A stretch of DNA of 64,000 bases from Octopus vulgaris (lineage: Eukaryota): positions 30,628,001 through 30,692,000 of the forward strand of contig OX597838.1 of assembly GCA_951406725.2 (NCBI GenBank), in the 5' to 3' direction. The notes below the pieces were generated by a model that saw only the letters and a list, made by a program, of their open reading frames with translations, did no database searches and was not told the origin of the DNA. Below, in pieces: positions 247-63,707 of the stretch. Numbering within the stretch: the stretch's first letter is position 1; the number at the start of each line of letters is the position of its first letter. The position numbers were made by a program, and so were the translations under genes.

Positions 247-319
247 GGTTCCATGGTGTAGTGGTTATCACATCTGCTTAACACGCAGAAGGTCGTGAGT
301 TCGAAACTCGCTGGAACCT
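247..319 (+). tRNA. tRNA-Val(AAC)
   Basis: Cloverleaf: acceptor GGTTCCA/TGGAACC, anticodon arm TCTGC-TTAACAC-GCAGA, T arm GTGAG-TTCGAAA-CTCGC; A and B boxes; T-run downstream. Confidence 0.93.
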
Positions 320-399
320 AATTGTTTTATACATTATTTGCATTTAGTGCCACCACCCTCATTACTGTTGGTGAGGCAAGGGTTGCTTTTTCTCACCGA

Positions 400-692
400 C
401 TTGAACTTGGCATACCAATCACGAGCGGTTCTTTCAGCTATGGCATCCTCTCCATACACAGCACAAATGTCGCGAGCAGCTTTTGCAGCCTTAGAACCTT
501 GATTAAAGGTGTCGAAAATGCTCGTTTCTCTTAACTTGTCATTCCATTTTAATGATCTGGAAATAAACTAAAATTAACTAAAATTAACTAAAATTAACTA
601 GAAAAAAAAGATTCCAAAATGATTCAAAAATAGAATTCTTGAAAAAAATAAATTCCAAAATTTAATAAAACGGTGGGAAATTAGTTGCCAAC
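400..692 (-). mobile_element. Tc1/mariner transposon 5' fragment (degenerate)
   Basis: Homologous to the 7785-8091 fragment; partial TIR GTTGGCAACTAA and HTH-coding remnant. Confidence 0.7.
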
Positions 693-1083
693 TATTTTGA
701 CTCATTTGAAATATGGGGCGAAATATCAGAAACTTATTCGTGTATATCACTGGAACCTAACACTTTTAAAGTCATAAATTGCAATAGTAAAGCTGGACAT
801 ATGTCAAATAAGAAATTAGAGGGAAGTATTCAAATGGAGTGAGATAAATGATTTTCCCAAGATGACATTCAATGAAGTCGAAAATGGGATCTCATGATTG
901 CGAAGCCAACGATATAACTTATAGATTGGCTGAGCGTATAATAAGGGGTGTAAAGATCTAGACCCATCACAGCAATAACTGAGACAAAAGGTCGTGTACT
1001 ACAAGAACAACATCAACATTTCCAGTATCATGGGGTTGAATGCGGTAGAACCTTGTACAAGCAAAGAAAAAGAAAGTATAATT

Positions 1084-1156
1084 AGGTTCCAGTGAGTTTC
1101 GAACTCACGACCTTCTGCGTGTGAAGCAGATGTGATAACCACTACACCATGGAACC
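1084..1156 (-). tRNA. tRNA-Val(CAC)
   Basis: Reverse complement of the same body; loop TTCACAC. Confidence 0.92.
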
Positions 1157-1300
1157 AGTCGGTAACGAAACCCAAATGTTTCTTTAACAAATACAAATGG
1201 TAACTTATACACAGTTTACAGTTGATTTACTTATAAAAAGACAGTGGAATATAAGAAATGGTAATTTAAGAAGTATTTAGTTATATTTATTTATAGTGAG

Positions 1301-1312
1301 GGTTTCGAATCC
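1301..1312 (-). promoter_or_regulatory. Upstream B-box-like motif (GGATTCGAAACC) about 150 bp 5' of the minus-strand tRNA
   Basis: Motif recurs at a similar distance upstream of many tRNA copies on both strands; function inferred. Confidence 0.4.
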
Positions 1313-1567
1313 TGTTGGCGTTCACTGCACCTTCCATGTATTCAGATTATAAAATATTGGTCACTTCTTTTGGTGAAATGTACATAGAGTACATCCACTG
1401 GGCTCTCTTTAGAAATATCTGTCTGTGTGTCAATGCTAGAGAGAAGATATTGAGAGAAGATCAATATTCATTTTATCAATATTTATTGCAAAGATCAATA
1501 ATTATCAATAGATCAGGTCATTATTGTATAAACCCTCAATGCATAAAATGGAAAGTGAACACAACTA

Positions 1568-1579
1568 GGATTCGAAACC
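1568..1579 (+). promoter_or_regulatory. Upstream B-box-like motif (GGATTCGAAACC) 147 bp 5' of the tRNA at 1715
   Basis: Mirror of the 1301-1312 motif in the divergent spacer; function inferred. Confidence 0.4.
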
Positions 1580-1714
1580 CTATACAATTTTTGTTAATTC
1601 ACCGTTCCTGATACACCACTGTGCATTGAAAGCTGTGTACAAGATACAACTTAAATTGTGTGCAAGATACAACTTGTGTATGATAAAACAATATTTGAGA
1701 ACGGTGATGCATCC

Positions 1715-1787
1715 GGTTCCATGGTGTAGTGGTTATCACATCTGCTTAACACGCAGAAGGTCGTGAGTTCGAAACTCGCTGGAACCT
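1715..1787 (+). tRNA. tRNA-Val(AAC)
   Basis: Consensus body, loop TTAACAC. Confidence 0.93.
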
Positions 1788-2478
1788 GACTTTGGTCTAT
1801 ATATTTTGCTCGTACATTAACTCACCGATAGAATTACTGCTGGTACTGCAAGGTGTTCTGTTCCAGTGTTTGTGGCGCTCCACCACCCGGCCGCCACCAA
1901 TGAATATAATTAAACGCAGCCATGAATTAGAGTTTTCCACTTTGAAATTTCTCGTTCGAGACACTCAACATCGATTTCAGATTTTTGCACGAGTTCAGCA
2001 ATTTCGGGAAGGCGATAAATCGATGACATCGATCCCAGTGATTAGCAAGTGAGTATTTTATCGACCCCTAAAGGATAAACGGTAAAGCTGAACCTGGTGG
2101 CATTCGAACTCAGAACGTAAAGACAGACAAAATGCCGACAAGGATCTTGGTCCGGCGCAGGAACCATTGTGCGTCGGGTTATCACAGCCGCTTTGCTCAT
2201 AGAGAGTCACATGTTCGATACTCGCTTGAACATTTTTACATTATGATTTTGGTTTGGCTCCGTTAGGAATTATGTGGACAGCAGGTTACTACCTGTCAGG
2301 TATCCGTAAGTCTTCGGCAATCTTTCAAGTGCTTAAAACCCACCTGATAATCCTTGCTGTCTCTAAGAGACAAAGTTTCTTTAAGAACTCCGCAGCGCAT
2401 TCTATTCCAGTCTCCTTCATCCATTTGTCTACATTTTTGCTTACTGTTCTCAACGCACCATTATTATTATTATTATTA

Positions 2479-3382: not shown

Positions 3383-3455
3383 AGGTTCCAGTGAGTTTCG
3401 AACTCACGACCTTCTGCGTGTTAAGCAGATGTGATAACCACTACACCATGGAACC
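3383..3455 (-). tRNA. tRNA-Val(AAC)
   Basis: Consensus body, reverse strand. Confidence 0.92.
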
Positions 3456-4338: not shown

Positions 4339-4411
4339 AGGTTCCAGCGAGCTTCGAACTCACGACCTTCTGCGTGTAAAGCAGATTTGATAACCACTAC
4401 ACCATGGAACC
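4339..4411 (-). tRNA. tRNA-Val(TAC), variant
   Basis: Loop TTTACAC; substitutions in D stem and T loop. Confidence 0.78.
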
Positions 4412-4928: not shown

Positions 4929-5001
4929 GGTTCCATGGTGTAGTGGTTATCACATCTGCTTAACACGCAGAAGGTCGTGAGTTCGAAACTCGCTGGAACC
5001 T
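4929..5001 (+). tRNA. tRNA-Val(AAC)
   Basis: Consensus body. Confidence 0.93.
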
Positions 5002-5030: not shown

Positions 5031-5652
5031 CATTTCTATTCTAGGCACAAGGCCCGAAATTTTGGTGGACGGGGGAAGTCAATTAGATCGACACCATTAT
5101 GCAACTGGTACTTAATTTATTGACCCCGAAAGGATGAAAGGCAAAGTCGACCTCGGCAAAATTTGAACTCAGAACGTAAAGACAGACAAAATATCTATTT
5201 CTTTACTACCCACAAGGGGCTAAACATAGAGAGGACAAACAAGGAGAGAAAAACGGATTAACCCTTCAGTGTTCACATTATTCTGCCAAAATTAATGTTT
5301 TTTTATCCACATTGCCTTGAACTAATCATGCATTATCTTGTAGCTATGAGATTTTGATGAGGTAGCTGTTAATTTTTAAAATGATATTGTAGGGTTGGTG
5401 TGAGAGACCAGATCTGGCCAGTTTGAACATAAAACAAGTTGAATACTTTTGGCCGGATATGGCCGGTTTAAATGCTAAAGGGTTAAGTCGATTATATTGA
5501 CCCAAGTGCGTAACTGGTACTTATTTAATCGACCCCGAAAGGATGAAAGGCAAAGTCGACCTCGGCAGAACTTGAACTCAGACCGTAGCGGCAGACGAAA
5601 TACCGCAAAACATTTCGCTCGGCATGCTAACGATTCCGCCAGCTCGCCGCCA
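5031..5652 (-). mobile_element. Tandem tRNA-derived SINE units (Nin/Deu-like core), interrupted by a MITE
   Basis: Repeated core GACCCCGAAAGGATGAAAGGCAAAGTCGACCTCGGC and B-box GAGTTCAAAT on the minus strand; boundaries approximate. Confidence 0.75.
5262..5482. mobile_element. piggyBac-like MITE
   Basis: TTAA on both sides (5258-5261, 5483-5486); imperfect TIRs CCCTTCAGTGTT / rc CCCTTTAGCATT; absent from paralogous SINEs near 19868 and 27009. Confidence 0.8.
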
Positions 5653-6090
5653 TATTTTGTTAGTACATAATACCACCACCCACATTACAGTTGGTATTGC
5701 AAATGTTGTTGTTGTTGGCAACGTTTGGTTCCAGTCGTTGTTGTTGTTACTGTTGTGTTGTAGAGTGGGCCCTCTCTGCCGTCACCACCGATGAGGACGG
5801 ACAGACTCAGCGATATATTAAAGCTCGACATTGGAAGATCTGCCAGTAGAGACAATTGGTTTCAAATTTGTGTACAAGGCCAGCAATTTCAGTGGGAGGA
5901 GATAAGTCGCTTACATCAAACCCAAAGCTCAACTGTTATGTATTTTATCGACCCCGGCGGAATTTGAACTCAGAACGTAAAGACTGACGAAATGCCGTGA
6001 AGCTTTTTACCCAGGGTGCTAACGAATCTGCGAAACTATCGCCTTACATCTTCTATATAATAAAACAATAATTAAGTACCGGTCGTGTCT

Positions 6091-6163
6091 GGTTCCATGG
6101 TGTAGTGGTTATCACATCTGCTTTACACGCAGAAGGTCGTGAGTTCGAAACTCGCTGGAACCT
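6091..6163 (+). tRNA. tRNA-Val(TAC)
   Basis: Consensus body, loop TTTACAC. Confidence 0.93.
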
Positions 6164-7014
6164 ACCATTTGTTTTCTGTTTTGTTTTGACCCTGGGGTTT
6201 CTAATACAATGGGAATGGAGGCTGATATATTTAGTTTCTTGTATTTGCTATAGTTATTGGTGCTAATACCCCACCTGCATTTCTCTTAATCGTCAACGCT
6301 TTTCTCTTAAGACGTAAATAGTAATATCAACCTCGGCCAGATTTTTAAAATAAGAAAGATCTTACTCAAAACAACACTCATTGAGGGCGACAGAGGACTT
6401 CATGATTGTGGAGCTAATTACGTAACTATGAACAGCTCTAATACATAATGAGTGGTTTAAAGATCCAGACCGCTGTATAACGGTTTCAATACTCTATTGA
6501 ATATTCTTTTCCCTTCATTGTGATATGAATATTCTCGAGAGATTGAAAAACTTAACAATCTCTGGTTTCTATTTCTGTCTCTTTTAAACCTCAGAGAGAA
6601 ACCTTTCTATGAAATGACGACGAAACCAATAGAAGTGAAGAGAGAGGGAAACTGTAGTGTTTCGGATTAAAGGTTTTCTAGTATTTACAATCCGTTAGAT
6701 TCTGCGTTGTTGTTTCTGATCAAACAGACATATAATTAAAGTATGTCAGCCATGACTCTCTCATCTTATTATCAAACAATCCATCCAAGACTTCAGTATC
6801 CAGTGGCCACCACTCTTATTTCTCTTCCAATTCATATTTAGTGAGTCTTAAAGTGTTTGATCCTAGATTTACGAACTGGTCACTGATATGTGACAACACG
6901 TGATAAGGCGGCATCTTCGATCAAAAATGTAGGGCGAGCTGCCGTTGTTTTTGAAGTTGATGCAAATATATCAACGTCTATTCCTATAAAAGTATAAGTC
7001 AAAAAGTAAACCTT

Positions 7015-7087
7015 AGGTTCCAGCGAGTTTCGAACTCACGACCTTCTGCGTGTTAAGCAGATGTGATAACCACTACACCATGGAACC
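7015..7087 (-). tRNA. tRNA-Val(AAC)
   Basis: Consensus body. Confidence 0.93.
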
Positions 7088-7631
7088 AGTTGATAGTCTG
7101 TTTTCAAATATTGCTTTATATAAAGAAGTTGTGGGTTATACAGTTTAATGATGATTTACTTTAAGAAAAGACATTGGAATCTCAGAAATGGTAAATTAAC
7201 AACAAAAAATTAGTTATATTTATTTTCAATTCAGGTTTCGAATCCTGCTGGAGTTGACTTTAACCTCCACGTACTCAGGGTATCATAAAATATTGGTAAA
7301 CTATTGGTTCTTTTGCTCAAATTTACATCGTGTTTAACACTTGGGCTCTTTTTAGAAATATCTGTCTGTGTGTTAATGTGAGAGATGAAAATTAAAAGAC
7401 AGTTCAATATTTATTAAGATCAATAATTACCAATAGAACAGGTCATTATTGTATTGACCCCTGAGGATACAGAATGGAAAGTGAACTGCAGCAGGATTCG
7501 AAATGCTAAGCTCTCCTTGTTAATGTAACCATTTTCGATACTCCACTGTGTTTTGAAAGCTAACTCTACATTAAACTCTGCACAAAATACTTGTGTATGA
7601 CAAAACAATATCTGATAGAGCGACAGCATCT

Positions 7632-7704
7632 GGTTCCATGGTGTAGTGGTTATCACATCTGCTTAACACGCAGAAGGTCGTGAGTTCGAAACTCGCTGGA
7701 ACCT
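7632..7704 (+). tRNA. tRNA-Val(AAC)
   Basis: Consensus body. Confidence 0.93.
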
Positions 7705-7784
7705 AAATGTTTTCTATTTTATTTGTATTTAGTACCACCACTCTCATTACTGTTGGTGAGGCAAGGGTTGCCTTTTCTCACCGA

Positions 7785-8091
7785 CTTGTACTTGGCATAC
7801 CAATCACGAGCGGTTCTTTCAGCCATGAAACCCTCTCCATACACAGCACAAATGTCGCTAGCAGCTTCTGCGGCCTTAGAACCTTGATTAATAGCAAAAA
7901 CAAGGAGGTGTTGAAAATGCTCGCTTTTCTTAACTTGACATTCCATTTTAATGATCTGGAAATAAACCAAAATTAACTAAAATTAACTAGAAAAATAAAA
8001 CAAGATTCCAAAATGATTCAAAAATAGAATTCTTGAAAAAAAAATTCTAAAATTTAAGAAAAACGGTGGGAAATTAGTTGCCAACCCAATA
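7785..8091 (-). mobile_element. Tc1/mariner transposon 5' fragment (left TIR plus N-terminal HTH)
   Basis: TA+TTGGGTTGGCAACTAA terminus; MECQVKK.EHF.HLL.FA...SKAAEAA.DIC.VYGE...AERTARDWYAK resembles the Mos1/SETMAR-type transposase HTH; no DDD domain. Confidence 0.82.
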
Positions 8092-8465
8092 TATGACTTA
8101 TTTGATATAAGGGGCGAAATATCAGTAACTTATTCACGTATATCACTGCAACCTAGCACTTTTAAAGTAAAAAATTGCAATATGTCAAATAAGAAATTAG
8201 AGAGAAGTATTCAAATGGCGTGAGGTAAATGATTTTCCCAAGGTGACATTCAGTGAAGACGAAAATGGGATCTCATGATTGCGAAGCCAACGATGTAACT
8301 TATAGACTGGCTGAGCGTACAACAAGGGGTGTAAAGATCTAGACCCATCACAGCAATAACTGAGACAAAAGGTCGTGTATTACAAGAACAACATCAGAAT
8401 TTCCAGTATCATGGGGTTGAATGCGGTAGAACCTTGTACAAGCAAAGGAAAAAAAAAGTATAATT

Positions 8466-8538
8466 AGGTTTCAGTGAGTTTCGAACTCACGACCTTCTGC
8501 GTGTGAAGCAGATATGATAACCACTACACCATAGAACC
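8466..8538 (-). tRNA. tRNA-Val(CAC), acceptor-stem variant
   Basis: GGTTCTA/TGAAACC acceptor with a mismatch; possibly non-functional. Confidence 0.7.
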
Positions 8539-9092
8539 AGGTGCTAACGAGACACAAATGTTTCTTTAACAAATACAAATGGTAACTTATACACAGTTTA
8601 CAGTTGATTTACCTATAAAAAGATAGTGGAATATAAGAAATGGTAATTTAAGAAGTATTTAGTTATATTTATTTATAGTGAGGGTTTCGAATCCTGTTGG
8701 AGTTCACTGCACCTTCCATGTATTCAGGAGATTATAAAATATTGGTCACTTCTTTTGGTCAAGTGTACATAGAGTACATCCACTGGGCTCTCTTTAGAAA
8801 TATCTGTCTGTGTGTCAATGCTAGAGAGAAGATATTGAGAGAAGATCAATATTTATTTTATCAATATTTATTGCAAAGATCAATAATTATCAATAGATCA
8901 GGTCATTATTGTATAAACCCTCAATGCATAAAATGGAAAGTGAACACAACTAGGATTCGAAACTGTATACAATTGTTGTTGATTCACCCTTTCTGATACA
9001 CCACTGAGCATTGAAAGCTGCTCCAACAGTAAATTGTGTATAAGATACAACTTGTGTATGATAAAGCAATATTTGAGAATTTTCAAGCATCC

Positions 9093-9165
9093 GGTTCCAT
9101 GGTGTAGTGGTTATCACATCTGCTTAACACGCAGAAGGTCGTGAGTTCGAAACTCGCTGGAACCT
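9093..9165 (+). tRNA. tRNA-Val(AAC)
   Basis: Consensus body. Confidence 0.93.
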
Positions 9166-9714
9166 GACTTTGCTTTATATATTTTGCTCGTACATTAACT
9201 CACCGCTCGCATTACTGTTGGTACTGCAAGGTGCAGCTGTTTTGTTCCAGTTGTTGTGGCGCTCCACCACCCGGCAACCACCAATGAATATAATTAAACG
9301 CAACCATGAATTAAAGGTTTCCATTATAAAATTTCTCGTTCGAGACACACAACGTTGTTTTCAGATTTTTGCACAAATTCAGTAATTTCGACGATCCCAG
9401 TGACTTGCAGGTGATTATTTTATCGACTCCGAAAGGATAAACGGTAAAGATGCACTTACAGATCAATTACATCAACACCCGGCTTCCACCCACAGTATAA
9501 ATTTCATCAACCCCCAAGGGATGCATGGCGAAATTGACGTCATTGAAATTTGACCTCAGAACACAAAGCGCCAAGAGTAACGCCACTTTGCAGTTTCTTC
9601 GACACAGTAACAATTCGCTTTACAGTCCTATGTAATAAAACTATACAACAGGAAGAAGAAGAAAGAGAGGATGGTTGAGTCCAAAACAAGTAAACAAAGC
9701 CAAAAACAAATCAT

Positions 9715-9787
9715 AGGTTCCAGCGAGTTTCGAACTCACGACCTTCTGCGTGTTAAGCAGATGTGATAACCACTACACCATGGAACC
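9715..9787 (-). tRNA. tRNA-Val(AAC)
   Basis: Consensus body. Confidence 0.93.
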
Positions 9788-10201
9788 AGACAAAAAAAAT
9801 TGGTCAAAAATATTGCTTATCATACAAAAGTTGTTTCTAATACCGTGAGTTTAATGTCGTGTTACTGCCAAACTACAAAGGTGTATCAGAATCGATACGT
9901 TAACAAGAAGTGTTTCTTTCTCGCCAGGGTTTCGAATCCTACTAGATTCCCTCAAACATCTATTGTTTCAGAGGTTCATAAAATAATGACTAGTTCTATT
10001 GGTAATTATTGGTCTTCTCAATAGATATTGATCTCATCGCAGTATCTATCTCTAACCTTGACACAGACACTAATGTTCAATGGAGAAACTCAAGCCACCG
10101 TATATTACTGGTATATATTTTAACGTCACTTTATTATGAAAACTCCAGACCGATTTCACTTACGTATGACCAGAGAAATATTGAGCAGTATAGCAGCGGA
10201 T

Positions 10202-10274
10202 GGTTCCATGGTGTAGTGGCTATCACGTCTGCTTCACACGCAGAAGGTCGCGAGTTCGAAACTCGCTGGAACCT
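10202..10274 (+). tRNA. tRNA-Val(CAC)
   Basis: G26/C50 subtype with a fully paired T stem GCGAG/CTCGC. Confidence 0.92.
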
Positions 10275-10455
10275 GCACATGTGCTGATTTTTAAAAATTT
10301 CTTTTTCCCCGCCAACGATATCATTTATTTTCGAATCTTGCAGGAGTTCACTTCACCGTTCATGCGTTCAGGAATATAAAAATAACGCCAAGTTCTATTC
10401 ATAATTATTGACCATCTCATTAAATTTTGATCTTTTCTCAGTATCTATCTTTACC

Positions 10456-10496
10456 GTTGTTGCTGTTGTTGCTGCTGCTTCTGCTGTTGTTGTTGT

Positions 10497-10531
<35 letters not shown>

Positions 10532-10551
10532 TTTTTGTTGTTGCTGCTGCT
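10456..10551. repeat. (GTT/GCT)n compound microsatellite
   Basis: Direct reading. Confidence 0.9.
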
Positions 10552-11062
10552 AATCCTTTCGTTAAAAAATATTTACTTGTAGATATTACCACCACCATCA
10601 TAATTGATTCTATTGCTATTGTTGTTGTTTTCAGAACGTTTTATTGTCGTTGATTTTACTGAGGTAGGGCGTGTCTGGATTGGCAGCAATCTCAGCCAAA
10701 GGACATAATTAAACACAGGCAGGTATTTTATCTGTCACATTAAAATTTCTTGGCAGAGAAAGGCCATGAATTTCAGAGAGGACGGCCAGTCGATAACACC
10801 GACCCCACTGCTCAAAGGGTACTTATTTTATCGACCCCGAAAAGATGAAAGGCAAATCCATCCTCGGTGGGATTTGAACTCTGAACGGACAAAATTCCGC
10901 AAAGCATTTTGCCTGGCGCGCTTTTCAGTTTAATCTGTTGCTTGTGTCGATTCTGCTGTTTCTGTTGTTTTGTGTAAATACAATAAATACAATAAACTAA
11001 TTACATCAATGCCTAACCCAATAAAATCATTAACCTCAGGAGATGAAAAAAAAAAAAAAGCT

Positions 11063-11135
11063 AGGTTCCAGCGAGTTTCGAACTCACGACCTTCTGCGTG
11101 TAAAGCAGATGTGATAACCACTACACCATGGAACC
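11063..11135 (-). tRNA. tRNA-Val(TAC)
   Basis: Consensus body. Confidence 0.93.
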
Positions 11136-11602
11136 AACTGCTGCTCGTAGCGCAAAAAGTTTTCTTATCATATATAAGTGAAATCGATCCGGAGAACTAG
11201 CTATAAAACAATGGACTGTTTTATTATAGAATGAACAAAACCGGTTGGTGAGAAAGCTTTCAGTGATGTTAAAATATATACCAGTAATTATCTGTGACTA
11301 GAGCTTATCCACTAACGCTCTTTAGAAATATCTGTCTGTGAGTCAAAGTTAGAGATAAAGAGTGGGAGAAGACGAAATATCTATTGCAAAGACCAAAAAG
11401 CGCGAATGGAACTGGTCCTTATAAACCCCTAAATACATAAAATGGAAAGTGAACTCGAGGAGGATTCGAAAACCTAAGTATTTTTTTGTTAATTCACCGT
11501 TCCTGATTCCCCGTAGTGTTTTGAAAGCTACCTCAACAGTAAACTCTGCGCAAGTTACATCTAATCTATGATAAAACAATATTTGAGAATACACAAGCAT
11601 CT

Positions 11603-11675
11603 GGTTCCATGGTGTAGTGGTTATCACATCTGCTTCACACGCAGAAGGTCATGAGTTCGAAACTCACTGGAACCT
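11603..11675 (+). tRNA. tRNA-Val(CAC)
   Basis: Full length; one T-stem substitution. Confidence 0.85.
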
Positions 11676-12520
11676 ACCATTTGTTTTGTTTTGTTTTGAC
11701 CCTCGGGGTTTCTAATACAATGGGAGTGGAGACTGATATATTTAGTTTTTTGTATTTGCTGTAGTTATTGGTGCTAATACCCCACCCGCATTTGTCTTCA
11801 TCGTCAACGCTTTTCTCTTAAGACATAAATATTCATATCGACCTAGGCCAGATCTAAAATAAGAAAGATCTTACTCAAAACAACACTCAGTGAGGGCAAA
11901 CAGAGGACTTCATGATTGTGGAGCTAATTACGTAACTATGAACAGCTCTAATACATAATGAGTGGTGTAAAGATCCAGACCGCTGTATAACGGTTTCAAT
12001 ACTCTATTGAATATTCTTTTCCCTTCATTGTGATATGAATATTCTTGAGAGATTGAAAAACTTAACAATCTCTGGTTTCTATTTTTCTCTCTTTTAAAAC
12101 TCAGAGAGAAACCTTCGCGTGAAATGGCGACGAAACTAAAAGAAGTAAAGAGAGGGAAACTGTAGTGTTCCGGATTAAAGGTTCTCTAGTATTTTCATTC
12201 CGTTAGATTCTGAGTTGTTGTTTCTGATCAAACAAACCTTTAAATAAAATATGTCAGCCATGATCATCTCATCTTATCAAACAATCCATCTTAGTCTTCA
12301 GTGTCCAGTTGCCTCCCGTCTTATTTCTCTTCCAATTCATATTTAGTGAGTCTTAAAGTGTTTGATCCTAGATTTACGAACTGGTCACTGATATGTGACA
12401 ACACGTGATAAGGCGGCATCTTCGATCAAAAATGTAGGGCGCGCTGCTGTTGTTTTTGAAGTTGATGCAAATATATCAACGTCTATTCATATAAAAAGTA
12501 TAACTCAAAATGTAAATCTT

Positions 12521-12593
12521 AGGTTCCAGCGAGTTTCGAACTCACGACCTTCTGCGTGTTAAGCAGATGTGATAACCACTACACCATGGAACC
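12521..12593 (-). tRNA. tRNA-Val(AAC)
   Basis: Consensus body. Confidence 0.93.
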
Positions 12594-13114
12594 TATTGAT
12601 AGTAGTTTATCAAATATTGCTTTATATAAAAAAGTTGTGGGTTGTACAGAGTTTAATAGTTATTTACTTTAAGACAGTGGAATTAACTAGAAAAAAAAGA
12701 AGTATTTAGTTATATTTATTTATAGTGAGGGTTTCGAATCCTGTTGAAGTTCACTGCACCTTCCATGTATTCAGGAGATTATAAAATACTGGTCACTTCT
12801 TTTGGTCAAGTGTACATAGAGTACATCCACTGGGCTCTCTTTAGAAATATCTGTCTGTGTGTCAATGCTAGAGAGAAGATATTGAGAGAAGATCAATATC
12901 AATTTTATCAATATTTATTGCAAAGATCAATAATTATCAATAGATCAGGTCATTATTGTATAAACCCTCAATGCATAAAATGGAAAGTGAACACAACTAG
13001 GATTCGAAACCCTATATAATATTTGTTAATTCACCGTTGCTGCTCTAACATTAAATTGTGTATAAGATACAACTTGTGTACGATAAAACAATATTTGAGA
13101 ATTTTGAAGCATCC

Positions 13115-13187
13115 GGTTCCATGGTGTAGTGGTTATCACATCTGCTTAACACGCAGAAGATCGTGAGTTCGAAACTCGCTGGAACCT
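13115..13187 (+). tRNA. tRNA-Val(AAC)
   Basis: Full length; variable-loop substitution. Confidence 0.88.
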
Positions 13188-13819
13188 GACTTTGGTCTAT
13201 ATATTTTGCTCGTACATTAACTCACTGCTTGCATTACTATTGGTACTACAAGGTGCTGCTGTTTTGTTCCAGTTGTTGTGGCGCTCCACCACCCGACCGC
13301 CACCAATGAATATAATTAAACGCACCCATGAATTAGAGTTTTCCACTTTGAAATTTCTCGTTCGAGACACTCAACATTGATTTCTGATTTTTGCACGAGT
13401 TCAGCAATTTGGGGAAGGCGATAAATCGATGACATCGATCCCAGTGATTATTTTATCGACCCCTAAAGGATAAACGGTAAAGCTGAACTTGGTGGCATTC
13501 GAACTCAGAACGTAAAGACAGACAAAATGCCGACAAGGATCTTGGTCCGGCGCAGGAACCATTGTGCATCGGGTTATCACAGCCGCTTTGCTCATATAGA
13601 GTCACGTGTTCGATACTCACTTGAACATTTTAACATTATTATTTTGGTTTGGTTCTGTTAGGAATTATGTGGACAGCAGGTTACTACCTGTCAGGTATCC
13701 GTAAGTCTTCGGCAATCTTTCAAGTGCTTAGAACCCACCTGATAATCGTTGCTGTCTCTAAGAGACAAAGTTTCTTTAAGAACACAAAAACGCATTCTAT
13801 TCCAGTCTCCTTCGTACGG

Positions 13820-13891
13820 GCTTCCATGGTGTAGTGGTTATCACATCTGCTTCACACGCAGAAGGTCGTGTGTTCGAAATCGCTGGAACCT
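13820..13891 (+). pseudogene. tRNA-Val(CAC), probable pseudogene
   Basis: G2C, broken T stem with a 1-nt deletion; usual upstream flank absent. Confidence 0.7.
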
Positions 13892-14622
13892 CCAGATGCT
13901 TTTTATTTACATTGGGGCTTCCAATTTTACGAGAGTGGGGATTGATAAATTTAGTTTGATGTATTTCCTACAGTTATTAGTGCCAATACCCCTCCAGTAT
14001 TTGACTTCATCGTCGGCTCTGAAGCTGGTGTTACTGATGGTGGTGTTGTAACTTTTACAACTTCTGTGATCTCTACTGTTGTATGGTGTTAGAGAAAACG
14101 GATCTTTTCTGTTGCCGTAACAGTTTTTTGAAATTTAAAATTGAGAGAAAATTTCCAGATTTGGTCCATTGATGTAATTTTTCACATAGAACCTGATGTT
14201 ATTATTCATTTATTCCAGAAAAATTTTAGAAAAATATTACATTAATAGGATGTTGCAAATTGTTTTGTTGTCGACGAAATTTTGCAATGTCTCTCTGAAT
14301 GGATAAAATGTGTTTAGTTATGTCCCTTTGTGTCATCCGTTGTTGGTTTTTGGCGGTGGTAGAGGGGCGGCAGATCAATTACATCAACACTCGGCTTCCA
14401 CCCACTGTACATATTTCATCGACCCCGAAGGGATGCATGGCAAAATTGACGTCTTTGAAATTTGATCCCAGAACGCAAAGCGCCAAGATTAACGTCACTT
14501 TGCAGTTTCTTCGACACAATAACAATTCGCTTTACAGTCCTATGTTATAAAACTAACAACAACAAGAAGAAAGAGAGGATGGTTGCGTCCAAAACAAGTA
14601 AACAAAGCCAAAAAGAAACCAC

Positions 14623-14695
14623 ATGTTCCAGCGAGTTTTGAACTCACGACCTTCTGCGTGTTAAGCAGATGTGATAACCACTACACCATGGAACC
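14623..14695 (-). tRNA. tRNA-Val(AAC), variant or pseudogene
   Basis: T loop TTCAAAA and C72A mismatch. Confidence 0.7.
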
Positions 14696-15241
14696 AGTTG
14701 ACGGCATTTTATCAGATCTTGTTTTATATAAAGAAGTTGTGGGTTGTACAGCGTTTAATGGTGATTTACTTTAAGAAAATACAATGGAATCTCAGAAATG
14801 GGAAATAAACAAGAAAAAATTAGTTATATTTATTTTCAATTCAGGGTTAGAATCCTGCTGGAGTTGACTTTAACCTCTACATACTCAGGGTATCACAAAA
14901 TATTGGTAAAATATTGGTTCTTTTGGTCAAATGTACATCCAGTTTATCACCTGGGCTCTTTTTAGAAATATCTTTCTGTGTGTCAATGTGAGAGATGAAA
15001 ATTAAAAGACAGTTCAATATTTATCAAGATCAATAATTACCAGTAGAACTGGTCATTATTGTACTGACTCCTGAGGATTCAGAATGGAAAGTGAACTGCA
15101 GCAGGATTCTAGATGCTAAGCTCTCCTTGTTAACGTAACCATTTTTGATACACCACCGTGTTTTGAAAGCTAACTCTACATTAAACTCTGCACAAAATAC
15201 TTGTGTATGACAAAACAATATCTGACAGAGCGACAGCATCT

Positions 15242-15314
15242 GGTTCCATGGTGTAGTGGTTATCACATCTGCTTAACACGCAGAAGGTCGTGAGTTCGAA
15301 ACTCGCTGGAACTT
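15242..15314 (+). tRNA. tRNA-Val(AAC)
   Basis: Full length; C72T. Confidence 0.85.
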
Positions 15315-15394
15315 AACTGTTTTATATTTTATTTGTATTTAGTGCCACCACCTTCATTACTGTTGGTGAGGCAAGGGTTGCTTTTTATCACCGA

Positions 15395-15730
15395 CTTGAA
15401 CTTGGCATACCAATCACGAGCGGTTCTTTCCGCTATGGCACCCTCTCCGTACACAGCACAAATGTCGCGAGCAGCTTTTGCGGCCTTAGAACCTTGACTA
15501 AAAGCAAAAAGAAGGAGGTGTCGAAAATGCTCGTTTTTCTTAACTTGACATTCCATTTTAATGATCTGGAAATAAATAAAAATTAAATAAAATTAACTAG
15601 AAAACATAAACAAGATTCCAAAATGATTCAAAAACAGAATTTTCGAAAAAAATTAACTCTAAACTTTAAAAACGCAATAAATTCCAAAATTAAAAGAACA
15701 AACGGCGGGAAATTAGTGCCAACCCAATAT
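15395..15730 (-). mobile_element. Tc1/mariner transposon 5' fragment
   Basis: ORF 15329-15556 encodes a mariner HTH; TIR remnant at about 15710-15730. Confidence 0.82.
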
Positions 15731-18117: not shown

Positions 18118-18232
18118 CGTTGTTGTTGCTGCTGCTGCTGCTGTTGTTGTTGTTGTTGTTGTTGTTGTTGCTTTTGCTGTTGTTGTTGTTGTAGTTGCTG
18201 CTGCTGCTGTTGTTGTTGTTGCTGCTGCTGCT

Positions 18233-18264
<32 letters not shown>

Positions 18265-18291
18265 TGCTGTTGTTGTTTTTGTTGTTGTTAT

Positions 18292-18323
<32 letters not shown>

Positions 18324-18424
18324 ATGTTGTTGCTGCTGCTGCTGCTTTTGTTATTGTTGTTGTTGTTGTTGTTGTTGCTGCTGCTGCTGCTGCGGCTGCC
18401 GCTGCTGCGGCTGCCGCTGCTGCT
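18118..18424. repeat. Expanded (GTT/GCT)n compound microsatellite
   Basis: About 300 bp; same site as the shorter tracts at 10456, 25570 and 31972. Confidence 0.92.
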
Positions 18425-20478: not shown

Positions 20479-20533
20479 GGTTCCATGGTGTAGTGGTTAT
20501 CACATCTGCTTCACACGCAGAAGGTCGTGAGTT
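20479..20533 (+). pseudogene. tRNA-Val(CAC), 3'-deleted
   Basis: Body stops at GAGTT in the T loop and joins the downstream T-rich flank. Confidence 0.85.
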
Positions 20534-21389: not shown

Positions 21390-21462
21390 AGGTTTCAGCG
21401 AGTTTCGAACTCACGACCTTCTGCGTGTTAAGCAGATGTGATAACCACTACACCATGGAACC
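21390..21462 (-). tRNA. tRNA-Val(AAC)
   Basis: Full length; one acceptor mismatch. Confidence 0.82.
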
Positions 21463-23554: not shown

Positions 23555-23809
<255 letters not shown>

Positions 23810-38583: not shown

Positions 38584-38656
38584 AGGTTCCAGTGAGATTC
38601 GAACTCACGACACTCTGCGTGTGAAGCAGATGTGATAACCACTACACCACTAAACC
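38584..38656 (-). pseudogene. tRNA-Val(CAC) with damaged 5' acceptor strand at the LINE junction
   Basis: Intact from T8 onward; 5' strand reads GGTTTAG; shares diagnostic variants with the intact copy at 63132. Confidence 0.75.
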
Positions 38657-40089: not shown

Positions 40090-40292
40090 GTATATATAAA
40101 CAGATTCAATCGAGTACTGAAATCGATAACGCTGGTGTGATGAGTCTAGAGCCTTCCACCCCTTATTATATAATAGATCCGTCCATTGTTATATAGTTCG
40201 ATCTCCAGTTATGAAGACTCCCGATCGAATTCACTTATGTATCAAACAACTTGATTATGATAAGAAAAATATTTGCTCTTATTTCAGTGTGT

Positions 40293-40365
40293 GGTTCCAT
40301 GGTGTAGTGGTTATCACATCTGCTTTACACGCAGAAGGTCGTGAGTTCGAAACTCGCTGGAACCT
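40293..40365 (+). tRNA. tRNA-Val(TAC)
   Basis: Consensus body. Confidence 0.93.
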
Positions 40366-44371: not shown

Positions 44372-44620
44372 ATGTAATACCAAGTGCAACCAAAAGTATC
44401 AGTGGGGAGGCGGGGCTCGTGGGGTCCGAGCTAAACCCGCACCCACTCCACCCGTAATGTCTTCCGGTCTGTCCTATCACTCGATTTTTGTCCATTTATT
44501 GTTATTCATGAAAATTTTTAAACCCGATTTATTGTAAAAACCCATTCGTTTGTCTGACCCCATCATCAGAATGTATTGTCCCATCTGTGTTCGCCCCTTG
44601 TGGGTAATAATAAAACAACA

Positions 44621-44912
44621 TGGCCCCGTGGTTAGAGCAGCGGACTCGTGGTCGAGGAATCGCGGATTCGAATCTCAGACCGGGTGATGTGTGTGTTTAT
44701 GAGCGAAACACCTAAGCTCCAAGCGGCTCCGGCAGAAGGTTATGGCGAACTTCTGCTGACTCTTTCGCCACAACTTTCTCTCACTCTTTCCTCCTGCATC
44801 TTGCAGCTCACCTGCGACGGACCGGCGTCCCGTCCAGGTGGGGAACCTATACGCCAAGGAAACCGGGAAACCGGCCCTTATGTGCCAGGGATGGCTCGAG
44901 AAGGAACAAACA
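44621..44912 (+). mobile_element. tRNA-derived SINE (copy of 39798-40089)
   Basis: Near-identical duplicate. Confidence 0.75.
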
Positions 44913-45115
44913 GTATATATAAACAGATTCAATCGAGTACTGAAATCGATAACGCTGGTGTGATGAGTCTAGAGCCTTCCACCCCTTATTATATAATAGA
45001 TCCGTCCATTGTTATATAGTTCGATCTCCAGTTATGAAGACTCCCGATCGAATTCACTTATGTATCATACAACTTGATTATGATAAGAAAAATATTTGCT
45101 CTTATTTCAGTGTGT

Positions 45116-45188
45116 GGTTCCATGGTGTAGTGGTTATCACATCTGCTTTACACGCAGAAGGTCGTGAGTTCGAAACTCGCTGGAACCT
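45116..45188 (+). tRNA. tRNA-Val(TAC)
   Basis: Consensus body. Confidence 0.93.
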
Positions 45189-45924
45189 AACTTTTATTTT
45201 TCACTTCAGGGTATTATAATTTTAGAAAGAATGGTCAAACATATTTCAAAGTAGAATTGAAACATCGTCAACAAAATGATCCAGCATGGCCATAGTCAAA
45301 TGACTGAAACAAATAAGAGAATAAATAAGAATAATAATGAATCAATCGTACTTCGAACTCTTGATCTTCTGAGTATGAAGCAGATATGAGGGCCACGGGA
45401 CCCCGATGCGCCAGCTGTGTATATATCTTCAGTAGGAATTGTCTCTAACCAGAAATTTTAGAGTGACAGTCTAAATATATGTGTTTAGTTGTGTCCCTCG
45501 GTTGTTAAGTTAATATATAGTTTAACCCCTAGTCACCAAAGCAAAAAAAGAAACTGTCTAATAGGTGTAAAGAAAATGTGTAAAAAACGAATATGAAAAC
45601 AAAAATTTGCGCAAACGAATGGGGAACGGGTGGGGAGAGGACTTTTGGAAAATTCACACGATCAGGTTTTTTCCCTCATAACTTTCAGGAAAATGGATAC
45701 CTTTTAGTGAAATTTTACAGAAGCACCTTTCAAACACTACAGATTACGATTCGTTCTTCTTCTCTCTCGTTCTCGAGTATAAAAGAAATGAAGAAGAGAA
45801 AGCGGATGGAAAGCCACAGAGCATTTTCTTCAACAAGCTAACGATTCTACCAGTTCACCGCTTTACAGTCCTACAGGATGGTTACGTTAAAAAAGAAGCA
45901 AACGAAGGCAAAAAAATAAAACTT

Positions 45925-47735: not shown

Positions 47736-47808
47736 AGGTTCCAGCGAGTTTCGAACTCGCGACCTTCTGCGTGTGAAGCAGACGTGATAACCACTACACC
47801 ATGGAACC
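47736..47808 (-). tRNA. tRNA-Val(CAC)
   Basis: G26/C50 subtype. Confidence 0.92.
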
Positions 47809-49229: not shown

Positions 49230-49641
49230 CAGAGCTGGCAGAAACGTTAGCACGCCGGGCGAAATGCTTAGCGGTATTTCGTCTGCCGTTACGTAGTGAG
49301 TTCAAATTCCGCCGAGGTCGACTTTGCCTTTCATCTTTGCGGGATCGATAAATTAAGTACCAGTTACGCACTGGGGTCGATGTAATCGACTTGATCTGTT
49401 TGTCTGTCCTCGTTTATCCACTCTGTGTTTAGCCCCTTGTGGGTAATAAAGAAATAGGTCTTTCGTCTGCTGTTGCGTTGTGAGTTCAAATTCCGCCAGG
49501 TCGACTTTGCCTTTCATCCTTTCGGGGTCGATAAATTAAGTACCAGTTACGAACTGGGATCGATGTAATCGACTTAATACCTATGTATGTCCTTGTTTGT
49601 TTTCTCTGTGTTTAGTCCCTTGTGGGTAGTAAAGAAATAGG
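49230..49641 (+). mobile_element. Tandem tRNA-derived SINE dimer (Nin/Deu-like core, LINE-like tail)
   Basis: GAGTTCAAATTCCGCCGAGGTCGACTTTGCCTTTCATC core twice; tails TGTGTTTAGCCCCTTGTGGGTAATAAAG. Confidence 0.8.
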
Positions 49642-49682
49642 TAATATCTACAAGTAAAAAAAAACAAAAAAAAAACAGAATT

Positions 49683-53206: not shown

Positions 53207-53217
53207 TATTATCATCA

Positions 53218-53248
<31 letters not shown>

Positions 53249-53437
53249 TATTGTTATTGTTATTATTATTATTATTATTATTTAATTATTGTTATTGTTA
53301 TTATTATTATTATTATTTAATTATTATTATTATTATTATTATTATTATTTTATTATTATCACCATCATCATCATCATCATTATTATTTTTATTATTATTA
53401 TTATTATTAATAGTAGTAGTAGTAGTAGTAGTAGTAG
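53207..53437. repeat. (ATC/GTC/ATT/AGT)n compound microsatellite
   Basis: Direct reading; starts at the inner end of the left palindrome arm. Confidence 0.9.
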
Positions 53438-54064: not shown

Positions 54065-54137
54065 AGGTTCCAGCGAGTTTCGAACTCACGACCTTCTGCG
54101 TGTTAAGCAGATGTGATAACCACTACACCATGGAACC
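54065..54137 (-). tRNA. tRNA-Val(AAC)
   Basis: Consensus body. Confidence 0.93.
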
Positions 54138-55615: not shown

Positions 55616-55688
55616 AGGTTCCAGCGAGTTTCGAACTCACGACCTTCTGCGTGTTAAGCAGATGTGATAACCACTACACCATGGAACC
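55616..55688 (-). tRNA. tRNA-Val(AAC)
   Basis: Consensus body. Confidence 0.93.
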
Positions 55689-58262: not shown

Positions 58263-58301
58263 AATTCTGTTTTTTATTTCTGTTTTTACTTGTAGATATT
58301 A

Positions 58302-58714
58302 CCTATTTCTTTACTACCCACAAGGGGCTAAACACAGAGTAGACAAACAAGGACATACATAGGTATTAAGTCGATTACATCGACCCCAGTGCGTAACTTG
58401 TACTTAATTTATCGACACCCGCAAGGATGAAAGGCAAAGTCGACATCGGCGGAATTAGAACTCACAACGTAACGGCAGACGAAATACCTATTTCTTTATT
58501 ACCCACAAGGGGCTAAACACAGAGGGGACAAACAAGGACAGACATAGGTATTAAGTCGATTACATCGACCCCAGTGCGTAACTTGTACTTAATTTATCGA
58601 CCCCCGAAAGGATGAAAGGCAAAGTTGACCTCGGTGGAATTTGAACTCAGAACGTAACAGCAGACGAAATACCGCTAAACATTTCGCCCGGCGTGCTAAC
58701 GTTTTTGCCAGCTC
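58302..58714 (-). mobile_element. Tandem tRNA-derived SINE dimer
   Basis: Mirror of 49230-49641. Confidence 0.8.
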
Positions 58715-60804: not shown

Positions 60805-60907
60805 AATTCTAATTTTTTTATGTGCTTCTTCGCCACCACCATAACTGTTGGTGTTGCAAATACTGTTATTGTTGTTTTCAAAACAATTTGTTGTTGTTTT
60901 TGTTGCA

Positions 60908-61308
60908 GGCGTAGGAGTGGCTGTGTGGTAAGTAGCTTGCTTACCAACCACATGGTTCCGACTTCAGTCCCACTGCGTGACACCTTGGGCAAATGTCTTC
61001 TACTATAGCCTCAGGCCGACCAAAGCCTTTTCAGTGGATTTGGTAGACGGAAACTAAAAGAATCCCATCGTATATATGTATATGTGTGTATATGTTTGTA
61101 TGTCTGTGTTTGTCCCCCCCCCCCAACATCGCTTGACAACCGGTGCTGGTGTGTTTATGTCCCCGTAACTTAGCGGTTCGGCAAAAGAGACCGATAGAAT
61201 AAGTACTAGACTTACAAAGAATAAGTCCCGGGGTCGATTTGCTCGACTAAAGGCGGTACTCCAGTATGGCCGCAGTCAAATGACTGAAACAAGTAAAAGA
61301 ATAAAAGA
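60908..61308 (+). mobile_element. tRNA-derived SINE (octopus-like family, about 400 bp)
   Basis: Head GGCGTAGGAGTGGCTGTGTGG (A box), B-box-like TTCAGTCCC, internal TA/TG microsatellite, A-rich tail. Confidence 0.8.
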
Positions 61309-61441
61309 AGGTGAGTGGATTAGAATGGCAAAAGTAAGAACCGATGAACACCGTTAAACGCAACAATGTATTCAGTATTTCAATTTAAAATTTCTTGTTA
61401 GAGATGGTTAAGATTGAAAATGTATAGACGCCTGGTGAATC

Positions 61442-61515
61442 GGATTTCTGTTGTGTAATGGTTGCCATATCTGCTTCATACTAAAAAGATCGCGAGTTCG
61501 AAATACGCTGGTTCC
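61442..61515 (+). pseudogene. Degenerate tRNA-Val derivative with CAT loop
   Basis: Mirror of 46779-46851. Confidence 0.6.
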
Positions 61516-61697
61516 ATTTTCACTATTTTGATTCTGAGTTTTTTTTGTTGTTTGTGTAAAGGCAGACGTTGTTTTTGTCAATGATATTTTACTTGATTTT
61601 GTTGTTCTAAATACAATTGCTGCTGTAAATATAATATAAGCTAAATATGCCAAAACTTAGACCTATAAATTATTATCAGGAGTAGAAAAATGAAGCT

Positions 61698-61771
61698 AGA
61701 CTCTGGCGAGTTTCGAACTTCCGCCATATCGGTGTGTAAAGCCGAATTGATAACCACTACACAATGGAACC
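61698..61771 (-). pseudogene. Divergent tRNA-Val(TAC)-like gene
   Basis: Mirror of 46521-46594. Confidence 0.62.
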
Positions 61772-62372
61772 ACTTACGATTGGTCGTGCAAATATTTTTC
61801 TTGTATATGAATTTTATGAAATGTAAGTGAATCGATCCGGAGTTTTCATAACTGGAGAGCTGACTATGTAACATTGGACTGTTCTATTATATAATGAGGG
61901 GTGGAAAGTACTAGATTTATCAACAACTAGAACAAAACGTTATTGACTACAACAACAACAACAACAACAGAATATCCAACATCATAGTAAGATTGGTGGT
62001 CAACAATAGATCGTCTTTCCCTTCTAGTGATGTTAAAATATATACCAGTAATATACTGAGGTCAGAGTTTTCCCATTGGACGCTCTTCAGAAATATCTGT
62101 CAGGGACACAATATTAGAGATAAATACTGAGACGAGATCAATATCTATTGAGAAGACCAATAATTACCAATAGAACTAGTCATTATTTTATGAACCTCTG
62201 AAACAATAGACGTTTTAAAGAGGGAATCTTGTAGGATTCGAAACCCTGGCGAGAAAGAAACACTTCTTGTTAACGTATCGAGTTTGATACTCCGCTGTAG
62301 TTTGGCAGTAACTCTCTGTATTAGAAACAACTTTTGTATGATAAAGCAATATTTTAGGGCTTTCCATTATCT

Positions 62373-62445
62373 GGTTCCATGGTGTAGTGGTTATCACATC
62401 TGCTTAACACGCAGAAGGTCGTGAGTTCGAAACTCGCTGGAACCT
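62373..62445 (+). tRNA. tRNA-Val(AAC)
   Basis: Consensus body. Confidence 0.93.
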
Positions 62446-63131
62446 AGGCTTTCTTTTTTGCCTTCGTTTGCTTCTTTTTAACGTAACCATCCTGCAGGAC
62501 TGTAAAGCGGTGAGTTGGTAGAATCGTTAGCTTGTTGAAGAAAATGCTCTGTGTCTTTCCCTCCGCTTTCTCTTCTTCATTTCTTTTCTACTTGAGAACG
62601 AGAGACAAGAAGAACGAATCGTAATCTATGCTGTTTGAAAGGTGTTTCTGTAAAATTTCATTAAAAGGTATCCATTTTCCTGAAAGTTATGAGGGAAAAA
62701 ACCTGATCGTGTGAATTTTCCGAAAATCCTCTTCCTAACCGCTCCCCATTCGCTTGCGCAAATTTTTGTTTTCATATTCGTTTTTTACACATTTTCTTTA
62801 CACCTATTAGACAGTTTTTTTGTTGCTTTGGTGACTGGGGGTTATTGTACATAGGACCAGTCCCTAGTCATGTAGTCAGTGATAAGTTTCTGGGTTCAAT
62901 CTCATTGAATGTCATCTTGAGCAAGTAACTTACCTAAAGATATTCTTTACTGGTCCCTGTGTTTTTTCTTGTTTGTCTGACGTCCATATTACCATTTATC
63001 TCTTCTAAAGTTGTTTGACAAAAATATCAGTGATTTCAAATGATCCATAAATATCTCGAATCGAAAATGAAATACTATAAAAGTCAGAGCTGGTATATAA
63101 TAAAATAATGTTTTACTCACGGATACCAAGT

Positions 63132-63204
63132 GGTTCCATGGTGTAGTGGTTATCACATCTGCTTCACACGCAGAGTGTCGTGAGTTCGAATCTCACTGGA
63201 ACCC
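63132..63204 (+). tRNA. tRNA-Val(CAC)
   Basis: Full length; variable loop GTGTC, T loop TTCGAAT, C73. Confidence 0.85.
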
Positions 63205-63634
63205 AGCTTGTTCTCCTTTTAACTCTGAGTTGGGGGTGTAGATTGAATTTTGTTTTGGGTTGTTCGATACATACATCAATGATGAATTCCAAATGCTGGA
63301 GCAGTTTGAAAGGGAAACGATGTCCCTGTCACTATAATCACCGGACATTGCCCCATCTTATTATCTGTCTGTGAATCAATGTTAGAAATAAATATTGAGA
63401 TGTTTATTGAGAAGACCAATAATTACCAATAGAACTAGTTATTATTTTATGGACTCCTGAAATAACAGAAGTTAGAGGGCATCCAGCAGGATTCGAAACC
63501 CTGGCGAGAAAGAAACACTTCTTGTTAACGTATTGATTCTGATATTCCGCTGTAGTCTGAAAGTAACTCAACGTTAATCTCTGTATTAAAAACAGCTGTA
63601 TGATATAGCAATATTTTATGAGGTTCTGTCGTCT

Positions 63635-63707
63635 GGTTCCATGGTGTAGTGGTTATCACATCTGCTTAACACGCAGAAGGTCGTGAGTTCGAAACTCGCT
63701 GGAACCT
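63635..63707 (+). tRNA. tRNA-Val(AAC)
   Basis: Consensus body. Confidence 0.93.

Follow-up and report, generated by a model that had tools for sequence, protein, structure and literature searches.

The window analysed here, a stretch of 64,000 nucleotides from the Octopus vulgaris genome (contig OX597838.1), lies within a large cluster of tRNA-Val genes. When positions 247–63707 were analyzed with ARAGORN, we found 75 tRNA genes, 43 on the plus strand and 32 on the minus strand, and all of them were valine genes (42 AAC, 19 CAC, 14 TAC and no GAC). These numbers are very close to those of the original prediction, made from the sequence alone, in which about 73 full-length genes (42 AAC, 18 CAC, 13 TAC and no GAC) were said to share essentially one tRNA body. 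The gathering score of Rfam RF00005 was reached by 74 of the 75 genes, as expected of nuclear tRNA genes with a cloverleaf fold. Anchored at their anticodons, the genes gave a single 73-nt consensus in which position 34 was the most variable site; there were 37 distinct 73-mers, 24 copies were identical, and eight additional hits were partial. All consensus stem pairs were intact in 56 of the 75 genes, and three genes contained indels (13820, 35335 and 46521).

To define the whole cluster, 100 kb was added on each side and the resulting 264 kb were scanned. The cluster occupies approximately 130 kb (G000:C25:~30,580,900-30,710,400), reaching about 47 kb before and about 18 kb past the window, and contains 149 genes with the Val body, namely 66 AAC, 49 TAC, 33 CAC and one decayed copy reading CAA. 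The anticodon bases A35 and C36 were kept in 148 of the 149 genes, the exception being the CAA copy. This copy (called Leu) lies at G000:C25:30,701,866, and its upstream flank matches those of dispersed CAC genes at loci L198 and L182. In the whole genome (2.8 Gb in 227 contigs), a pattern for the Val anticodon arm had 179 matches, 125 of which (~70%) were inside the cluster region. With the anticodon stem left free, a Val pattern matched the genome 147 times, whereas its reversed version, used as a chance control, did not match at all; one stem was common to all 100 matches listed, and 46 of the other 47 were in the cluster. Forty of the 100 listed were dispersed genes, located on 13 different contigs (21 AAC, 8 CAC and 11 TAC). 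The Rfam search of the genome scored 63 candidates and is not a census.

The orientation of the genes is mixed. The neighbouring pairs in the window comprise 29 head-to-head, 29 tail-to-tail and 16 tandem pairs, the members of 26 of the 29 head-to-head pairs being 410–559 bp apart. The median gene spacing is 511–918 bp depending on orientation, so that the genes form a homogeneous tDNA cluster in the usual sense (one amino acid, spacing mostly below 1 kb). The flanking sequences group into 27 upstream and 29 downstream families, which repeat with a unit of approximately nine genes, and duplications are nested: besides the 10.2-kb segment listed below there are many older ones of 2–4.6 kb with 90–96% identity, some of them inverted. 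Identical tRNA bodies in the window are embedded in flanks that are merely 50–75% alike. The features are as follows (window coordinates; the families are flank families).

247..63707, both strands: part of the tRNA-Val cluster within the window, 75 genes (ARAGORN, Rfam and flank analysis)
247..319, plus strand: type copy, Val-AAC gene with the 73-nt consensus body, U32/C38 loop and U73, family U25D9
3988, 7632, 15242, 21999, 29155, 36748 and 52257 (plus), 55616-55688 (minus): further AAC copies of family U25D9
1715..1787 (plus), also 9093, 13115, 16740, 22802, 30612, 34630 and 37856 (plus), 54065-54137 (minus): AAC family U25D10
4929..5001 (plus), also 19539 and 26681: AAC family U25D3
7015..7087 (minus), also 12521-12593, 21390-21462, 28544-28616 and 34036-34108: AAC family U22D1
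9715..9787 (minus), also 17384, 24829, 31233, 45925 and 56134 (minus), 51737, 62373 and 63635 (plus): AAC families with the U24 flank
1084..1156 (minus): mixed family U23D14, CAC at 1084, 8466 and 16121, AAC at 29985 (minus) and 54692 (plus)
10202..10274 (plus): mixed family U18D24, anticodon flanked by G26+C50, CAC at 10202, 25313 and 31718, TAC at 17866
51253 (minus) and 56618 (plus): TAC copies related to U18D24
6091..6163 (plus): mixed family U16D7, TAC here, CAC at 27618
4339..4411 (minus), also 11063, 18949, 26110 and 32584: TAC family U19D6 on the AAC sub-body
40293, 45116 and 48681 (plus), 59192 (minus): TAC genes with the U20 flank
47736..47808 (minus), also 50051 (minus), 57811 and 60483 (plus): CAC genes with the U21 flank (G26+C50), upstream homologous to AAC families
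63132: CAC family U9D4
11603..11675 (plus): chimeric CAC gene with flanks of the 4929 and 6091 types, duplicate at 33119
3383..3455 (minus), also 14623 and 36127: chimeric AAC gene, U22 upstream and D19 downstream; another chimera at 37253-37325
231..241 (plus): hypervariable part of the inner 5' flank, approximately -16 to -7, given here for one gene and found in 13 of 14 families
324..328 (plus): example of a T-run terminator for RNA polymerase III (Pol III)
5485..15638: 10.2-kb duplicated segment, copy at 27012-37139, 96.4% identity
13820..13891 (plus), 35335, 46521, 23737 and 38584-38656: damaged copies (indel or lost 5' end)
2479-2537, 2657-2693, 20479-20533, 23924, 47488, 60782 and 61748: tRNA fragments

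Several genes pair the upstream flank of one family with the downstream flank of another. In genes 11603 and 33119, for instance, the upstream flank is 93% like that of the AAC gene 4929 and the downstream flank 94% like that of gene 6091. Such chimeric flanks point to recombination inside the 73-bp tRNA bodies.

To the left of the window, at G000:C25:30,615,000-30,617,800, there are approximately 17 TAC copies with a period of 168 bp, an array that is likely to be young and partly silent. In two metagenome contigs (L115 and L029), Val genes are likewise about 170 bp apart, with no clear flank homology to this array.

In order to see whose body the cluster carries, we compared the window consensus with 41 of the 54 matches outside the cluster. 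Nine of the 21 dispersed AAC genes were identical to it, and the mean distance of this group was 1.3, as opposed to 7.9 for dispersed CAC and 6.6 for dispersed TAC genes. At five diagnostic positions taken from the dispersed genes themselves (G7, G26, C50, C60 and C66), at least three of the listed bases were present in 16/20 dispersed CAC/TAC genes and in 2/21 dispersed AAC genes, whereas this was the case in 0/79 cluster CAC/TAC genes (three indel copies and the CAA copy dropped), 60 of which carried none. The sub-body of the dispersed CAC/TAC genes recurs in the metagenome loci L029 and L033 and is therefore likely to be the older CAC/TAC form. A search of the whole genome for a second Val body, with a pattern free at the D arm and open to other T stems, gave five hits, one of which was called a tRNA, and no new family; these patterns may overlook bodies that differ at the fixed letters. 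Judged by these comparisons, the cluster body is the normal Val-AAC body of the genome, on which CAC and TAC anticodons likely came to ride. Since the consensus equals the dispersed AAC gene and dispersed CAC/TAC genes differ from it, the direction is opposite to that originally proposed, i.e. amplification of a TAC-type body that then gained AAC and CAC. The same prediction had named, as an outcome that would speak against it, that this is the ordinary AAC/CAC body across molluscs; within this genome, it is indeed the ordinary AAC body.

The starting point of that proposal was a comparison with vertebrates, in which the Val-AAC/CAC body (GTTTCCG..., TTCGC anticodon stem) differs from that of Val-TAC (GGTTCCA..., TCTGC stem). 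This yardstick does not transfer. Among the metagenome matches listed to the same D and anticodon arm (A, C or G allowed at position 34), 131 were full-length, and 119 of these were AAC, 12 CAC and none GAC; the supposedly TAC-type arm thus reads AAC in most of them. The matches listed sit on many different acceptor stems, the exact cluster stem being present in 2/119 AAC matches. Where one locus holds several Val genes, TAC equals CAC outside position 34 in L029, and AAC differs from CAC at one site in L115 and at three in L030; other pairs differ at 5–15 sites. Hence, the arm is not specific for TAC, and nearly shared Val bodies exist in other eukaryotes as well. The idea of an amplified TAC-type body that gained AAC and CAC retains in its favour the resemblance to vertebrate Val-TAC, the rarity of the exact acceptor stem among the AAC matches (2/119), and the lack of a second Val body family in the genome patterns, which would leave room for a much older replacement of TAC by AAC. 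Nevertheless, the cluster version of the idea is contradicted by the distances given above and by the occurrence of the arm with AAC on many unrelated bodies, and we regard it as most improbable.

The original prediction that anticodons were switched on a shared body was supported by the flanks. Three flank families (U23D14, U18D24 and U16D7) hold two anticodons each, which is how an isoacceptor shift is recognized. The upstream flanks of the CAC families U21 and U23 matched the profile of AAC flanks in 7/7 and 8/8 cases, respectively, as compared with 1/41 dispersed Val and 0/30 Cys genes used as controls, and the AAC/CAC label requires at least three changes on an upstream tree of 16 rows, one row of which (U25D7) is a chimera. 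The AAC copy at 29985 has four private body variants in common with the CAC copies at 8466 and 16121.

To examine whether the genes behave as working genes, rates of change were derived from flank-based trees of 13 families with 89 genes (the 168-bp array and families with fewer than three members were excluded). The tRNA bodies showed 56 changes in 936 family-sites (0.060) and the far flanks 718 changes in 2835 sites (0.253), so that the bodies changed approximately four-fold more slowly. The rate rose to 0.68 between -20 and -1 (170 changes in 249 sites), with a peak of 1.2–1.9 at -14 to -11, and the 10 nt immediately downstream had a rate of 0.64 (79 changes in 124 sites); an AT-rich, more slowly changing block lies at about -35 to -18. 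Position 34 changed four times in the 13 families, which is near the far-flank rate, and positions 35 and 36 did not change at all. In each of 14 families, pairwise diversity was lower in the body than in the far flank, and at -17 to -7, a zone picked post hoc from the profile, it exceeded that of the far flank in 13 of 14. The flanks are AT-rich, and a run of at least four T was present within 30 nt downstream of 147 of the 149 cluster genes and of at least five T within 40 nt of 103. A strand asymmetry of the flank changes was not clear (C>T 0.46, G>A 0.50, few sites).

Conservation of the bodies relative to their flanks indicates purifying selection, to which conversion could contribute. 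A part of PMC6130373 describes, for active tRNA genes, a conserved body and an upstream mutation peak at 12–15 nt, this peak being roughly five-fold stronger at active human genes than at inactive ones. The present profile, with its conserved body, its peak 11–14 nt upstream and a smaller peak downstream, is the same, except that we compared paralogues within one genome and that study compared species. Taken together, the flank peak, the terminators and the slowly changing bodies make the genes look like working Pol III genes. They are likely to be transcribed by Pol III, and the approximately 149 near-identical genes in the 130-kb stretch are likely to be working valine tRNA genes, as the prediction of working tRNAs under selection rather than neutral satellite DNA had held. 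A search of sequencing runs with the 73-nt AAC gene gave no match on record as RNA; eight runs under three organism labels contained 4/4 sampled words, which is too small a number of words to serve as evidence.

The possibility exists that the cluster is largely silent, satellite-like DNA whose bodies are identical owing to recent amplification or conversion. The 168-bp TAC array and an array of about 40 Ala-TGC genes with a 183-bp period (see below) do behave in this manner, and in the giant squid thousands of Val-like loci were judged by the authors, in a portion of PMC6962438, to be likely short interspersed nuclear elements (SINEs). However, identical bodies within dissimilar flanks, the flank peak with terminators, the invariance of positions 35 and 36 and the concentration of ~70% of the genome's Val matches in the cluster do not fit with such DNA. 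A SINE or satellite would be expected to have a common non-tRNA tail and a body decaying at the flank rate, and we observed 29 downstream families and slow bodies, the 168-bp array being a partial exception. Thus, for the cluster as a whole, a satellite nature is highly unlikely.

Another alternative is that three seed genes, one each of AAC, CAC and TAC, were homogenized by conversion from AAC copies with position 34 kept, so that no new anticodon ever arose. This is the main rival, and it is partly compatible with the explanation we prefer. Recombination within the bodies is observed in the chimeric genes, and conversion among tRNA genes is described in sections of PMC4981973 and PMC13169703. 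The genes of U18 and U21 are mosaics, in which G26+C50 flank the anticodon and the ends are of AAC type, and the TAC families have a flank group of their own; these two observations favour some role for conversion or for a separately seeded gene. Recurrent G64A was rejected as proof of conversion, as it affects a CpG site. Homogenization alone, on the other hand, does not readily account for the upstream flank that CAC families have in common with AAC families or for the two anticodons in each of three flank families. In the case of alanine, moreover, the bodies are about 20 positions apart and the cluster TGC/CGC genes nevertheless match the AGC body throughout, for which a single wobble change is the simpler explanation. 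We therefore find homogenization unlikely as the sole process.

The best explanation is, in our opinion, probably that the cluster of ~149 genes, which mostly have the ordinary AAC body and are likely transcribed by Pol III, grew by duplication, and that its CAC and TAC genes share this body through wobble changes and recombination. Local duplication would have enlarged the cluster, and CAC and TAC copies would have gained the AAC body through changes of the wobble base together with recombination between the 73-bp genes. A change of base 34 among A, C and T would be tolerated because the valine identity is kept (the family trees show no change at positions 35 and 36), and the changed gene would then be multiplied by duplication. 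Transcription would proceed from the internal A and B boxes, the tRNAs would receive CCA and be valylated despite U73, A34 of the AAC copies would be edited to inosine, and G34 variants would be removed by selection.

Several observations weigh against this explanation. The flanks of the TAC families U18, U19 and U20 form a group of their own and gave no hit with the AAC-flank profile. The ancestor of these families may thus be a gene that was seeded independently and had its body overwritten, and a single founder for the entire cluster is unsupported. At least one stem pair is broken in 19 of the 75 window genes. The 168-bp TAC array mostly has altered acceptor stems (T5, T7) and a weak flank peak, and some of its copies carry A73. 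As the choice of the five diagnostic sites was based on the dispersed genes and the cluster copies are kin, the Fisher P values of that comparison are overstated. The outgroup AAC genes are mixed, those of L030 and L115 having G26. According to the part of PMC4981973 considered, remoldings are mostly shallow and probably pseudogenes. Finally, the discriminator base U73 departs from the valine determinant A73.

U73 was found in 131/146 cluster genes and in 41/41 dispersed Val genes. A73 is called a universal determinant of valine in a section of PMC9976931, which also reports that wheat-germ valyl-tRNA synthetase (ValRS) ignores A73 on a viral tRNA-like structure; of the canonical identity elements A35, C36 and A73, the first two are present here, as is C38, and the third is mostly replaced by U73. 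Since neither an A73 family nor another Val body family was found by the genome patterns, it is likely that the ValRS of this animal tolerates U73. Among the metagenome matches listed (loci L027–L158), the link of U73 to a G1-G2 acceptor stem extended to other eukaryotes: bodies starting with GG had U73 in 29/30 cases, and all 101 others had A73.

As to the missing isoacceptor, no GAC was found among the 75 window or the 149 cluster genes, and a pattern search revealed no intact GAC anticodon arm in the whole genome. The original statement that GAC never occurs thus holds for intact genes and has to be qualified by the sole GAC-arm match in the genome, a decayed remnant at the left edge of the cluster (G000:C25:30,581,326-30,581,370, L026) that was not called as a tRNA. 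The further suggestion that this absence reflects selection could not be upheld as proof. The expected number of changes to G at position 34 over the family trees was 0.83, 1.09 or 3.76 with the far-flank, all-flank or inner-flank rate, respectively, and the corresponding probabilities of observing none were 0.44, 0.34 and 0.023, which makes the absence a weak test on its own. It is compatible with selection without demonstrating it, and it equals the known exclusion of G34 in eukaryotes. A portion of PMC8007984 describes eukaryotes as being without GNN tRNAs in inosine-read boxes, and according to a part of PMC7293025, G34 tRNAs are toxic in human cells if positions 32 and 38 cannot pair, the transfected tRNAs being Ala, Pro, Thr, Ser and Leu, not valine. 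The cluster genes, with their non-pairing U32/C38 loop and no intact Val-GAC, do not depart from this rule.

We also investigated other tRNA families of the genome. An alanine cluster lies at G000:C5:51.55-52.06 Mb (L226-L238). It holds 70 of the 72 genes that combine the AGC-type arm with a wobble base other than A (67 TGC, about 40 of them in the 183-bp array, and three CGC); the other two were a GGC gene 5 Mb away (C5:57,128,734) and a TGC gene on C18. Fifteen dispersed Ala genes with the other arm, a set chosen by that arm, were all TGC or CGC; aligned with the AGC body, they differed from it at about 20 positions. The cluster is not purely single-isotype, as 13 sampled stretches of it also contained three Gln and one Ile calls. 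Judging from these sequences, alanine repeats the cluster-confined spread of a body with A at the wobble position (ANN body) that was seen for valine. Threonine was considered as a third example and rejected: its AGT and TGT/CGT arms are distinct and in separate clusters, and one AGT was on the other arm among 82 matches. A cysteine cluster on C12 (25.25-25.29 Mb) contained 28 GCA genes in three of five adjacent 10-kb stretches (L163, L207 and L209), and it also has ACA and ACT derivatives. At L167 (G000:C2:183.06 Mb), a gene called Glu-TTC has the body of a Lys-TTT gene, apparently as the result of an alloacceptor shift. Isotype clusters are thus a habit of this genome; the Val cluster stands out less for it, and the ANN-body pattern gains in generality.

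The headline of the prediction, i.e. three anticodons and no GAC, is ordinary, since each ingredient is already known. Homogeneous tDNA clusters are described in part of PMC2888827 as mostly small, mostly parallel and ascribed to local duplication; the present cluster resembles them in having neighbours for one amino acid less than 1 kb apart, and differs in containing 149 genes, in that 58 of 74 window pairs are antiparallel, and in its head-to-head spacers of mostly 410–560 bp. Isoacceptor shifts and remolding, as treated in sections of PMC3923123 and PMC4981973, likewise involve a first-position change with the amino acid kept, are favoured by redundancy and are traced by flanks, but those are scattered events between species and these are amplified paralogues: 82 shifted CAC/TAC genes are in the cluster, as against 20 dispersed ones among the 41 non-cluster genes compared, and the pattern recurs for alanine. 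Rare explosions of tRNA copy number and conversion among tRNA genes are also on record in portions of PMC11960461 and PMC6962438 and of PMC13169703, respectively. We found no report of the cluster, of the contrast between clustered and dispersed genes, or of an animal U73 tRNA-Val in the literature, although supplements, the tRNA tables of genome papers and GtRNAdb may list the genes. Thus, single-isotype clusters and isoacceptor shifts are known, and the scale seen here and the repeated cluster-confined spread of ANN bodies were not found in the literature search. The cluster is real and likely to be functional, and it represents a large form of a type already described.

It is conceivable, though on balance doubtful, that the tRNA genes of this animal are arranged in megaclusters for one amino acid each, which rest on an inosine-34 (ANN) body and repeatedly spawn U34 and C34 readers that supply most such tRNAs (Val on C25, Ala on C5), with ValRS accepting U73. 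If so, the wobble base would be undergoing natural experiments in mutation and selection within these clusters. The contrast between clustered and dispersed isoacceptors of one genome, repeated in two amino acids, shows how bodies become common to several anticodons, and hundreds of paralogues with traceable flanks allow selection on the wobble base, including exclusion of G34, to be measured in populations. If U73 is the rule for valine tRNAs throughout this genome, it would break with an identity element termed universal in the 2023 review referred to above (PMC9976931).

The spacers of the window contain further elements. A non-long terminal repeat retrotransposon at 41056-44620 (plus strand) is 5'-truncated and frameshifted and has endonuclease, reverse transcriptase and zf-RVT domains. 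A 2.4-kb segment that includes the 3' part of this element as well as a TAC gene occurs twice, with 99.4% identity (38663-41055 and 43486-45879); at the CAC gene 38584-38656, the left copy has taken the place of the first bases and of the flank upstream. GTT/GCT and ATT microsatellites are located at 10456-10546, 18119-18424, 31972-32070, 23609-23740 and 53212-53437, and two-copy repeats of 183–185 bp at 49273-49643 and 58300-58673. Several spacers also harbour interspersed repeats, which we take to be SINE-like.

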